NCBI GenBank assembly: GCA_016840035.1
Contig: JAEOTC010000075.1
Coordinates: forward strand, 1-64,000
Direction: 5' to 3'
DNA: 64,000 bases
DNA from: Candidatus Hodarchaeota archaeon
GTDB taxonomy: Archaea; Asgardarchaeota; Heimdallarchaeia; Hodarchaeales; Hodarchaeaceae
Translations under genes and position numbers: made by a program
Notes under the pieces: model-generated
Database searches by the model: none
Told to the model about the DNA's origin: nothing
What the model saw: only the letters and a program-made list of their open reading frames with translations
In this document: positions 26,445 to 28,714 of the stretch, piece after piece
Layout: the number at the start of each line of letters is the position of its first letter
How positions within the stretch are numbered: position 1 is the stretch's first letter

Positions 26445-27173
26445 ATGTCAGTAGATGAAGATATTCTAAGACCGAAACCGAATAAAATTTGCCCTGATAA
26501 TACACCTTATCCTGCTAAATTTATTAATCTTGTAGACGGCTCCAAGATGGTCGTTCGTCAAATCACGCGAGAAGAAACAAAAAAAATTATTCCGCTCTTT
26601 TATGATATTGTAAAAATAAACAAAGACTTTTATGATCTTGTGGGGGCAAGAATACTAGGGGAATTACTTGCATACGTGCAATATCGTGTACAGGATGAAT
26701 ATGTACTCCTTGGTCAAGTACACGAAACTGGAGAAGTCCTCGGATTGGTTAATGGTTATTTAAGCTTTAATGATCCGAAAATTGGTCTCAGCTATCATAC
26801 AATGACTTTCAAGAGAGGCTTACGTGTTGGTGCACATCTTTTTGTGGCTAAAATGGAATACCATCTTGACTACCTTCAAAACGATGAAGTAAAAATCGTT
26901 GCAGAATCTCATCACGGATTTCGTCGATGGATGGAGGAATTACGTTTAGGTGAGGACTTCGGTTTTGAACATCCCCTGGGTGGAGTGCCTTCTTATGTTC
27001 TTTCCAGAAAGAACTGGGAATCCTATGTCAAACCAGAGCGATGTTTCGGTACAGAAAATCGTCCTGTCCCTGACGAATATATTAAAACTGTCTCTGCGAA
27101 TATCCTTTTACCAGATGATGTCACATTCCAAATTACTGGAACCACAAAAGAAGAATTTTTGAAGGGACTATAA
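26445..27173 (+). CDS. Putative GNAT-fold N-acyltransferase-like protein
   Basis: GNAT-like strand/helix pattern 'VLGLVNG...IGLSYHTMTFKRGLRVGAHLF'. Its stop abuts the thiolase ATG. Confidence 0.55.
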   Translation: MSVDEDILRPKPNKICPDNTPYPAKFINLVDGSKMVVRQITREETKKIIPLFYDIVKINKDFYDLVGARILGELLAYVQYRVQDEYVLLGQVHETGEVLGLVNGYLSFNDPKIGLSYHTMTFKRGLRVGAHLFVAKMEYHLDYLQNDEVKIVAESHHGFRRWMEELRLGEDFGFEHPLGGVPSYVLSRKNWESYVKPERCFGTENRPVPDEYIKTVSANILLPDDVTFQITGTTKEEFLKGL

Positions 27174-28361
27174 ATGCGTGAAGTAGCCATAATTGGCGTT
27201 GGAATGGGCAATCGCTGGGGAAAATACAGCGGTACTCTCATTGAAATGATGGCCGAAGCTTCTCTTTCAGCAATTGATGACGCAGGAACTGACGAAATTG
27301 ATGCGTTATTTGTTGCAAATATGGGAGCGGGGAGGATTAATAATCAAACTGCGTTGGGTTCGGCTTTAATCGACTATCTCAATTTATTCCCTGCTGTCGG
27401 AGCATCCATCGAGAATGGACCTGCTTCTGGGGCTACTGCCGCAAGAATTGGCTATATGGCAATTGCCTCTGGACTTCATGATGTGGTCATGATCACAGGT
27501 GGAGAAAAAATGCGTGTGGCTCCAGGACCAGTCGTTACCGATTTTGTTGCGACTATGGCACACCCAGAAGCAGAATATATTTACGGGATCACTTTTCCGA
27601 GTCTTGGTGCGCTTCTAGCTCGCCTATACTTTGAACAATATGGTGTTACATCAGAAGATCTCGCACGAGTAGCCATAAAAAATCATCAAAATGGATTGAA
27701 AAATCCTCATGCCCACATTCAGCAAAATATTACAATGGAAGGAATTTTGACCAGTCGGGAAGCGAGTCTAAATAATCCAATGATTGCTGACCCTTTACAC
27801 CTTTATGATATGTGTCCAGTCACAGATGGTGCTGCTTCGCTAATCATGTGCTCTATGGAAAAAGCCCAAGAATTTCAGAAAAAACCTCTTATTAAATTTG
27901 CTGGAACAGGACAGGGTATGGATACCATGGCTGTTCATGAGCGAGAAGACCCAACTTTCCTAAAAGCTGTAAAAATTGCCTCTGATCAAGCCTTCAGTAT
28001 GGCAGGGTTAACTCGAGCAGATATTGATTTTGCGGAAATTCATGACGCCTTTGAAATCCTGGAACTTGCTGAATTGGAATCAGCAGGGTTCTATGAACGT
28101 GGTAAATCTCACCTTGCCATACGAAATGGAGAAACTGAGATTTCTGGAAAGTTTCCTGTAAATACTTCTGGTGGACTTAAAGCTAGAGGCCATCCTGTTG
28201 GAGCAACTGGAGTGGCACAACTTTGTGAGCTGGTGTGGCAATTACGTGGTGAAGCGGGTGAGCGTCAGATTCCTAGTACACCCAAACATGGTTATGCTGT
28301 CAACTTTGGTGGATTTGGAAATAATGTGGTATCTACAATTCTTTCTCGTGTTATGGAGTGA
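27174..28361 (+). CDS. SCP2/archaeal-type thiolase-fold protein lacking catalytic cysteines
   Basis: 'GGEKM', 'KNHQNG..NPHAH', 'EIHDAF', 'GGLKARGHPVGATG'. ENGPASG stands where ExACASG is canonical. Confidence 0.85.
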   Translation: MREVAIIGVGMGNRWGKYSGTLIEMMAEASLSAIDDAGTDEIDALFVANMGAGRINNQTALGSALIDYLNLFPAVGASIENGPASGATAARIGYMAIASGLHDVVMITGGEKMRVAPGPVVTDFVATMAHPEAEYIYGITFPSLGALLARLYFEQYGVTSEDLARVAIKNHQNGLKNPHAHIQQNITMEGILTSREASLNNPMIADPLHLYDMCPVTDGAASLIMCSMEKAQEFQKKPLIKFAGTGQGMDTMAVHEREDPTFLKAVKIASDQAFSMAGLTRADIDFAEIHDAFEILELAELESAGFYERGKSHLAIRNGETEISGKFPVNTSGGLKARGHPVGATGVAQLCELVWQLRGEAGERQIPSTPKHGYAVNFGGFGNNVVSTILSRVME

Positions 28362-28366
28362 AAAAA

Positions 28367-28714
28367 ATGACAGAACGTACACCTACTGGATTTAAATGTC
28401 TCAATTGTGGAAAAATCCATTATCCACGGCATGGCCGCTGTTTAGAATGTAAGCAACGAGAATTTGAGGAAGTTAACCTTCCATCTGAGGGGACATTGAT
28501 CACCTTTACTCAGTTAAAAGCACCTCCTTCTGGAATAGATTCAAGATCTTTGTTTTTAGGTATTATTGATCTTGGAGAAGTTCGTTACACAGGGCAGATT
28601 GAAGTTGAGGATATTGGAAAATTACATACTGGGATGAAGTTGACTCCACATTGGAAACATGTGAGAACGATTGATAATCGTTCCGTAAGTGGATTTGTGT
28701 GGCTCCCTTCGTAA
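28367..28714 (+). CDS. DUF35 Zn-ribbon/OB-fold thiolase partner
   Basis: 'CLNCG...YPR...CLEC', then OB-fold 'GTLITFT'. Confidence 0.9.
   Translation: MTERTPTGFKCLNCGKIHYPRHGRCLECKQREFEEVNLPSEGTLITFTQLKAPPSGIDSRSLFLGIIDLGEVRYTGQIEVEDIGKLHTGMKLTPHWKHVRTIDNRSVSGFVWLPS

Follow-up and report, generated by a model that had tools for sequence, protein, structure and literature searches.

In a 64,000-nucleotide (nt) stretch of DNA from Candidatus Hodarchaeota archaeon (assembly GCA_016840035.1, contig JAEOTC010000075.1, positions 1 to 64,000; referred to below as the window), three consecutive genes encode a protein with a predicted GNAT fold (gene A), a thiolase-fold protein and a DUF35 protein. 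The trio is genuine and conserved: an uncharacterised enzyme complex that is mis-annotated as acetyl-CoA acetyltransferase and that varies the theme of thiolase-DUF35 multi-enzyme systems in a new way. It is probably a non-thiolase, heteromeric enzyme of uracil or ureide catabolism. In agreement with the initial annotation of the window, which had called the complex uncharacterised, no paper on the trio or its operon was found in the literature searched, whose coverage excluded most subscription journals.

Results

The three genes were found to be tightly coupled, as the initial annotation had described. The junction between gene A and the thiolase gene reads TAAATG, with a gap of 0 nt, and the thiolase and DUF35 genes overlap by 4 nt in GTGA (or are separated by 5 nt if the ATG of the DUF35 gene is taken as the start instead). 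Since the junctions are abutting or overlapping, the three genes were regarded as translationally coupled. An in-frame TTG is present at position 26436, 9 nt upstream of the ATG of gene A, and this ATG is backed by homologues beginning with MSVDED.

The thiolase-fold protein, whose family is named "acetyl-CoA acetyltransferase" in the databases, matched Pfam PF00108 (Thiolase_N, E = 3e-19) and PF22691 (Thiolase_C_1, E = 4.5e-42), both above the cut-off. The cut-offs of NCBIfam PRK06064 (411.1 against 420) and of AcCoTHIOL_METTL, the equivalog of the M. thermolithotrophicus thiolase (359.2 against 600), were not reached. The closest solved sequences were 7yvy (E = 1.4e-87) and 6esq (E = 4.7e-75). 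The motifs ENGPASG (residues 80–86), HDAF (290–293) and GHP (339–341) were confirmed from the open reading frames (ORFs) and their translations to be as originally described, and DMCP occupies residues 212–215. In the alignments, Pro83 falls exactly on the nucleophilic cysteine (Cys) of the archaeal thiolases 7yvy (IEAACASG) and 6esq (EAACASG), and also on that of the bacterial-type thiolase of the host genome. Ala292, within HDAF, occupies the position of the acid/base Cys of HDCF in the SCP2/archaeal type, and Phe378 aligns with the base Cys of the CxGG motif (CIGGG) in the bacterial-type thiolase of the host, whose NEAF and GHP correspond to HDAF and GHP. By these alignments, all three catalytic-Cys positions of thiolases are occupied by other residues. 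The claim that the protein does not catalyse a thiolase reaction is therefore supported at the sequence level, because no catalytic Cys is present. The departure of HDAF from HDCF, also pointed out in the initial annotation, does exist, but it is not unusual: 7yvy, which bears the nucleophilic Cys, has HDAF as well, and this motif alone is not diagnostic.

The replacement of the nucleophile was consistent throughout the family. Among the 69 thiolase-fold proteins encoded next to a GNAT gene and 119 database relatives, the position was held by Pro, rarely by Ala or Thr, and never by Cys; ENGPASG was present in 67 of the former and 115 of the latter, and HDAF was replaced by HNAF in 30 of the 119 relatives. 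Furthermore, H290 and H340, which we take to be the residues that form the oxyanion hole in the thiolase family, were invariant, as was the loop NFGGFGNN. Such invariance, at an identity of only 53–62% between the window copy and those of bacteria and Undinarchaeales, suggests that the active site is functional. Cys214, in DMCP, is the only invariant Cys of the family and replaces the pantetheine-loop Ser of canonical thiolases (ASPV or CSPV in 7yvy and 6esq, NSSP in the bacterial-type thiolase of the host). Relative to 7yvy and 6esq, the protein also carries a seven-residue insertion at 192–198.

Other Cys-less relatives were noted. The host genome encodes a second thiolase-like paralogue of this kind, of 422 amino acids (aa), with RIDNGGNTG at the nucleophile loop (G000:C227:13919-14968; L002:1498-2766, minus strand; G, C and L denote genomes, contigs and loci). 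Its best NCBIfam match, PRK06365, was far below the cut-off, and a UbiA-type prenyltransferase gene lies nearby. ST0096 (PDB 4YZO), with VDNTSGSG, is another Cys-less thiolase-like protein. The only Cys-bearing thiolase found in the host genome was the bacterial-type one, located beside a 3-hydroxyacyl-CoA dehydrogenase (L003).

The protein encoded by gene A gave no match in Pfam, NCBIfam (E up to 1) or the PDB sequences, and 901 database clusters of relatives were collected. The family is strongly conserved, its mean column identity being 59%. An AlphaFold (AF2) model built from 30 sequences reached a predicted local distance difference test score (pLDDT) of 89.5 and a predicted template modelling score of 0.88. 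The top Foldseek matches of this model were all GNATs (E about 5e-7, probability 1.00). The 50 best VIA-align matches were likewise all GNATs, the best having a Z of 13.2 and a root-mean-square deviation of 2.5 Å over 140 residues; 192 chains had a Z of 8 or more. The GNAT-like nature proposed for the first gene is thus borne out by the AF2 model, Foldseek and VIA-align, and the fold of the modelled protein is recognised by structure only. The GNAT core comprises approximately residues 23–203, with N- and C-terminal extensions around it, and the invariant residues S119, H121, T122, E157 and S158 are located on β4/β5, where the active sites of GNATs sit. GNAT decarboxylases of the malonyl-CoA decarboxylase (MCD) or CurA type were absent among the 50 best structural matches, which does not exclude a likeness to them.

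The third protein, DUF35, stayed just under the cut-offs of Pfam PF01796 and PF12172 (24.8 against 27.1); its orthologues carry Pfam matches, and a BbsA-like NCBIfam match was also obtained. The Cys4 zinc ribbon (C14, C17, C28 and C31) was invariant in 20 orthologues. Its gene was always 3' of the thiolase gene, in Hodarchaeales, Undinarchaeales, Moorella and the surveyed loci.

A prediction of the complex was performed with the GNAT protein as the scored partner of the thiolase-fold and DUF35 proteins, together with controls. The trio scored 0.64 (0.63–0.65 in three runs) and the best control 0.00; when the method was calibrated, 58 of 80 solved complexes and 2 of 110 mismatched pairs attained this mark. 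The runs agreed in at least 92% of the contacts, and the pLDDT of the partner was at least 79. Since the GNAT protein has no solved relative by sequence, a pass due to the memory of a like complex is unlikely. The modelled interface brings residues 16–19, 184–201 and 211 of the thiolase-fold subunit together with residues 30–35, 128–137, 201–207 and 234–241 of the GNAT protein, and the family-specific insertion at 192–198 lies inside it. Hence, a complex of the three proteins, as put forward in the initial annotation, is plausible according to the model, with the GNAT protein docking directly on the family-specific loop of the thiolase-fold subunit.

A natural control was provided by two congeneric genomes (94% and 90% complete), in which the syntenic position of the trio is taken by a thiolase-like gene (65% identical, with ENGAASG) and a DUF35 gene, with no GNAT gene. 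Their loop is short of 3 residues precisely at the predicted GNAT-binding site. The thiolase-DUF35 pairs are located at G102:C1:197965-199512 (L100:9966-11512) and G211:C26 (L101:10401-11947), flanked on one side by a Ras-like GTPase/guanylate-kinase-like pair and on the other by DUF3179; neither the CodA-like gene nor the gene of the kynureninase, both described below, is present there. Searches of both genomes found the GNAT, the cyclase and AllG (the last two introduced below) nowhere in them.

The distribution of the trio was surveyed with one genome per species. The GNAT gene was detected in at least 568 species genomes, mostly of anaerobic bacteria. The groups represented were Bacillota, Bipolaricaulota, Thermotogota-labelled metagenome-assembled genomes (MAGs), Verrucomicrobiota, Bacteroidota, Riflebacteria, Coriobacteriales, Atribacterota, Elusimicrobiota, Myxococcota, Asgard archaea and Undinarchaeales. 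A total of 83 loci were analysed (80 kept from the scan plus three earlier ones). The thiolase gene adjoined the GNAT gene in 69 of them and DUF35 in at least 55, the rest being mostly cut contigs or misses of ORF calling; in 59 loci, the called ORF adjoining the thiolase gene encoded the GNAT-fold protein. HMG-CoA (3-hydroxy-3-methylglutaryl-CoA) synthase was found in none of the 83 loci. The order of the trio was kept in Hodarchaeales, Undinarchaeales and Moorella thermoacetica. Because this order is kept across domains and ENGPASG is retained at the frequencies given above, the conservation of the trio is far beyond chance. The proposed triad therefore stands as a unit, its first gene being conserved with the thiolase-DUF35 pair across archaea and bacteria. 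A 634-aa ORF in a Bipolaricaulota locus was considered as a GNAT-thiolase fusion and rejected as an out-of-frame read-through in GC-rich DNA. A search for fusions among the longer database relatives yielded one 449-aa protein with no thiolase domain, and no fused form was found.

Of the 201 Asgard genomes sampled, 7 carried the GNAT gene, all belonging to one genus out of 59. The trio proteins of the window are 45–56% identical to bacterial copies, and this identity, together with the patchy distribution, suggests lateral transfer of the trio. In a quick maximum-likelihood tree of the thiolase-fold proteins, the two archaeal groups formed one supported clade nested among bacterial clades, with the root, placed by means of the two paralogues of the host genome on outgroup branches of about 10 substitutions per site, being unsafe.

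To describe the genomic context, all of the ORFs of the 83 loci were clustered, and the recurrent clusters were annotated. The consensus bacterial operon consisted, in this order, of AllH, FdrA and AllG (the three subunits of oxamate carbamoyltransferase), a cyclase-type hydrolase (PF04199), the trio (GNAT, thiolase, DUF35), the FAD, Fe-S and Mo subunits of a hydroxylase of the xanthine-dehydrogenase family, and an NCS2 permease. Some loci add a PucR regulator, a carbamate kinase, which passed its NCBIfam equivalog, or a CodA-like amidohydrolase. Of the bacterial loci, 37 extended at least 6 kb to either side, and pathway genes were present in 32 of these; the cyclase and AllG were each counted in 29, and FdrA and the FAD subunit of the Mo-hydroxylase each in 26. 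In four related loci of Bacillota MAGs (L019, L020, L022 and L028), a gene closely upstream of PucR encodes the beta subunit of a Na+-translocating decarboxylase (PF03977, E = 1e-156), which may hint at a carboxylated, malonyl-type intermediate. The 20 trio loci without the operon showed no dominant neighbour family, with a few cases of PNP_UDP_1, glutamate dehydrogenase, Pyr_redox and beta-eliminating lyase. The last of these (tryptophanase/tyrosine phenol-lyase family) was observed two genes downstream of the trio in Undinarchaeales (L006:11243-12667 and L035:4568-5992), where no other pathway gene was near.

Anaerobic uracil catabolism is well supported by this gene context as the probable pathway of the trio in bacteria. 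The alternative that the trio serves another ureide or N-heterocycle (purine, orotate or hydantoin) could draw on the PucR-type regulators and the xanthine-dehydrogenase-like Mo enzymes of the operon, and on the fact that AllFGH is known from allantoin degradation. Nevertheless, with 650 and 643 bits the UraA-type permease of the operon exceeded the cut-off of the NCBIfam equivalog for uracil permeases (477), and the xanthine-permease model scored far lower; the Mo subunit reached no xanthine-dehydrogenase cut-off; the trio adjoins a CodA-like gene in Asgard archaea as well as in Moorella; and the known anaerobic purine routes listed in PMC12507026 use other enzymes. This alternative is consequently unlikely, although it is the best placed of those considered here.

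The host genome (87% complete) contains, on other contigs, orthologues of the cyclase (52–72% identical), AllG (50–53%), FdrA, the Mo-hydroxylase with its FAD and Fe-S subunits (46–47%) and a carbamate kinase. The restriction to a single Asgard genus and the identities to other copies, of 45–56% for the trio and 38–72% for the orthologues of the other pathway genes, suggest that the whole catabolic module was acquired by gene transfer. The host FdrA-AllG pair (G000:C13:42350-47700; L098:12351-17704) is preceded by an acyl-CoA dehydrogenase gene and a 107-aa ORF without a family, and followed by a 180-aa ORF, also without one. An AllH homologue was not detected by tblastn, and one of the small ORFs may encode a divergent AllH.

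Upstream of the trio, across an intergenic region, lie the genes of a kynureninase, a LamG-domain protein and a CodA-like amidohydrolase (Table 1). The identity of the kynureninase was verified (369.6 bits against a cut-off of 246.4 for TIGR01814). It had been taken as a hint at amino-acid or aromatic-amine catabolism; this reading did not hold, as the synteny is confined to one archaeal genus, and the cross-domain neighbourhoods point to uracil or ureide catabolism. The kynureninase gene adjoins the trio only in some genomes of one Hodarchaeales genus and never in the bacterial loci, for which reason it was considered weak evidence of function. The CodA-like protein matched NCBIfam cytosine deaminase subfamilies below the cut-off; its gene adjoins the trio in all of the Hodarchaeales loci, and the protein is 47% identical to the product of the gene directly after the trio in Moorella. 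The LamG gene, which overlaps the kynureninase ORF by 29 nt, looks like an insertion, because the CodA-like and kynureninase genes are directly adjacent in a related genome (locus L007), with no LamG gene between them. A sigma-70 promoter scan of the intergenic region gave results at chance level and is not relevant to an archaeon.

Downstream of the trio, a run of membrane and zinc-ribbon proteins extends from 28940 to 33672. Besides two ORFs without a family, it comprises an RDD and zinc-ribbon protein, a protein of 520 aa that carries DUF7577 and several double zinc ribbons, and an intramembrane protease of the PrsW family to which a double zinc ribbon is fused; a DUF4350 protein follows at 34402-35661.

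Table 1. Features of the trio locus in the window.
Feature	Position	Strand	Size	Remarks
Gene A, GNAT-fold subunit	26445..27173	+	242 aa	Counted from ATG; ORF list and translation
Cys-less thiolase-fold subunit	27174..28361	+	395 aa	
DUF35 subunit, zinc ribbon and OB fold	28358 (GTG) or 28367 (ATG)..28714	+	118 aa	
CodA-like amidohydrolase	22767..24017	-	416 aa	Pfam Amidohydro_1/3; recurrent neighbour of the trio
LamG/concanavalin-like domain gene	24138-24998	-		Between the CodA-like gene and kynureninase
Kynureninase	24970..26244	-		TIGR01814 above cut-off; divergent from the trio; functional link doubtful
Divergent intergenic region	26245..26444	.	200 nt	Presumably holds promoters

Discussion

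The route that would fit this gene context is an anaerobic, oxidative breakdown of uracil that would proceed without oxygen and yield ATP. Uracil, possibly derived from cytosine, would first be converted by the Mo-hydroxylase into barbiturate, an intermediate suggested by the enzyme families. The cyclase-type or the CodA-like amidohydrolase would then open the barbiturate ring to give ureidomalonate, which is the one-carbon-longer homologue of oxalurate, the substrate of AllFGH. The AllFGH-like carbamoyltransferase would release carbamoyl phosphate by phosphorolysis of the N-acylurea, and the carbamate kinase would generate ATP from it. The malonyl unit that remains (malonamate or ureidomalonate) would be handled by the trio, to which it was assigned because of the anatomy of the trio and because the trio is the only unassigned component of the operon.

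As regards the specific mechanism, we tentatively propose, with somewhat less than an even chance, that the trio is a non-thiolytic enzyme which acts, by way of an enolate, on the malonyl fragment left after the oxidative opening of uracil. The GNAT protein would move the malonyl group between nitrogen and CoA, and the thiolase-fold subunit, with the oxyanion hole of H290/H340 and without a nucleophile, would decarboxylate it to an acetyl unit, as Cys-less ketosynthases do. This would give acetyl-CoA or, should CoA take no part, an acetyl-amide. What we infer here are the substrate, the sequence of steps, the involvement of CoA and the decarboxylation itself. Ketosynthases in which the Cys is replaced (KSQ/chain-length factor) act as malonyl decarboxylases, by an enolate-forming reaction in a Cys-less site of the thiolase superfamily. 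The GNAT fold transfers acyl groups between N and CoA, and GNAT-fold decarboxylases (MCD and the CurA loading GNAT) decarboxylate malonyl thioesters with a pair of His and Ser/Thr. These parallels are mechanistic analogies only; KSQ, MCD and CurA act on thioesters of acyl carrier protein or CoA in biosynthesis, unlike the role proposed for the trio.

In a more detailed form, to which we would give rather low odds, the trio would operate as an amide-to-thioester machine: the GNAT protein would move the malonyl group uphill from N to CoA, and the thiolase-fold decarboxylase docked directly to it, which has no nucleophile, would draw the reaction on to acetyl-CoA.

Several observations weigh against the assignment to uracil catabolism and against the mechanism. 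The hydroxylase, cyclase and AllFGH genes are not adjacent to the trio in the window, where only the CodA-like gene adjoins it. Within the genus (21 genomes, incomplete), the presence of the trio, the cyclase and AllG overlaps imperfectly, and the two congeneric genomes described above keep the thiolase-DUF35 pair without the cyclase or AllG. The β4-α3 loop of the GNAT protein reads R-G-L-R-V-G-A, with an invariant Arg130 where the CoA-pyrophosphate motif (Q/R-x-x-G-x-G/A) has Gly; owing to this replacement, and because the loop lies in the modelled protein interface, canonical CoA binding by this subunit appears doubtful. The transfer of an acyl group from amide to thioester is, moreover, energetically uphill and requires tight coupling. 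Finally, the presumed substrate tunnel is lined by the invariant Cys214, a possible nucleophile.

The logic of the proposed route is partly shared with the oxidative pyrimidine pathway and with the oxalurate branch of E. coli (AllFGH/AllK), given that a Mo-hydroxylase, a ring-opening hydrolase, an AllFGH-like carbamoyltransferase and a carbamate kinase are found in the trio operon. In contrast to the oxidative pathway (uracil dehydrogenase, barbiturase and ureidomalonase), no homologue of barbiturase or ureidomalonase is involved, the release of urea would be replaced by that of carbamoyl phosphate, and the trio has no counterpart in either system.

Judged by its sequences, the trio resembles three known thiolase-DUF35 systems and belongs to none of them. 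With the thiolase/HMG-CoA synthase/DUF35 complex (represented by the 6esq thiolase), it shares the thiolase fold, a stand-alone Cys4 DUF35, the three-gene layout and the His of GHP. It differs from that complex in having Pro for the nucleophilic Cys, a GNAT protein instead of HMG-CoA synthase and the insertion at 192–198; in the model, the GNAT protein touches the thiolase-fold subunit directly and not through DUF35. That complex serves mevalonate synthesis, whereas the context of the trio is nucleobase catabolism.

The absence of the nucleophile could also mean that the thiolase-fold protein and DUF35 are a non-catalytic scaffold and that the GNAT protein is the sole catalyst, acting in the manner of an N-acyltransferase or amidase on a pyrimidine-derived amine or amide. 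Dead subunits do exist in related complexes, as PhlA lacks its Cys and Glu (PMC6392133), and the residues of the GNAT cleft are invariant. This explanation is improbable, however, considering that the conservation of ENGPASG, HDAF, GHPVGATG and NFGGFGNN across archaea and bacteria equals or exceeds that of the remainder of the thiolase-fold protein, and that two genomes keep an intact thiolase-DUF35 pair without any GNAT.

About as improbable is an acyl-CoA lyase that would cleave C-C bonds by a retro-aldol or retro-Claisen reaction, as Ltp2 and Sal do, with the GNAT protein supplying or removing an acyl or amino group and a beta-hydroxy- or beta-keto-acyl-CoA being cleaved without an acyl-enzyme intermediate. 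The composition is that of Ltp2-ChsH2 and Sal-Shy, in which a thiolase fold without the thiolase nucleophile is paired with DUF35 and catalyses non-thiolytic C-C cleavage via an enolate, and the histidines of the oxyanion hole are kept in the trio. The analogy with these aldolases, drawn in the initial annotation, fails at the residue level: they use Tyr, the first residue of their YDHF/YDCY motif (PMC12329534), and this residue is His in HDAF. In addition, their DUF35 is a hydratase domain, their substrates are steroid CoA esters and they have no GNAT partner, whereas the DUF35 of the trio stands alone without a fused hydratase; no hydratase, acyl-CoA ligase or CoA transferase recurs beside the trio, and its context is ureide catabolism.

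A likeness to the acyltransferase PhlABC (PDB 5M3K) had been suggested as well, and it did not survive the comparison, since PhlC needs Cys88 as acyl carrier (PMC6392133) and Pro83 takes its place in the trio protein. PhlABC also joins a thiolase fold, DUF35 and a third protein in three subunits and acts independently of CoA on phloroglucinol, the carbocyclic analogue of barbiturate. Its PhlA, however, is HMG-CoA-synthase-like and has no homologue at the trio, and the sequence similarity to the trio thiolase covers only the C-terminal third (E about 1e-24). The least likely explanation is an acyl-enzyme on a relocated nucleophile, Cys214. The trio could then be, for example, a PhlABC-like C- or N-acyl transferase that works independently of CoA on barbiturate or uracil: this residue is the sole invariant Cys, in place of the canonical pantetheine-loop Ser, and barbiturate is a diaza analogue of phloroglucinol. 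Against this, Cys214 lies outside the nucleophile elbow (presumably, by homology, several angstroms away along the tunnel), PhlC keeps its canonical Cys, and no acyl donor is evident in the operon.

The preferred reading of the trio as a non-thiolase enzyme of uracil or ureide catabolism has consequences beyond this locus. The naming of its thiolase-fold subunit as an acetyl-CoA acetyltransferase inflates the counts of mevalonate and beta-oxidation genes in metabolic reconstructions of Asgard archaea and in others based on MAGs. Beside the thiolase/HMG-CoA synthase, aldolase and Friedel-Crafts acylase types, the trio would be the fourth functional thiolase-DUF35 type and the first with a GNAT partner. 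If the pathway reading is true, the trio would be the core of an oxygen-independent, ATP-yielding degradation of uracil in hundreds of anaerobic species, a route outside the known pyrimidine routes, which were listed in 2025 as the reductive, oxidative, Rut and URC ones only (PMC12507026). Should the amide-to-thioester reading also be true, the reaction would be of a new type for either fold and would supply the step missing from a fifth pathway of pyrimidine degradation, which would provide two ATP per uracil (from carbamoyl phosphate and acetyl-CoA) to anaerobes and, through gene transfer, to one Asgard genus.

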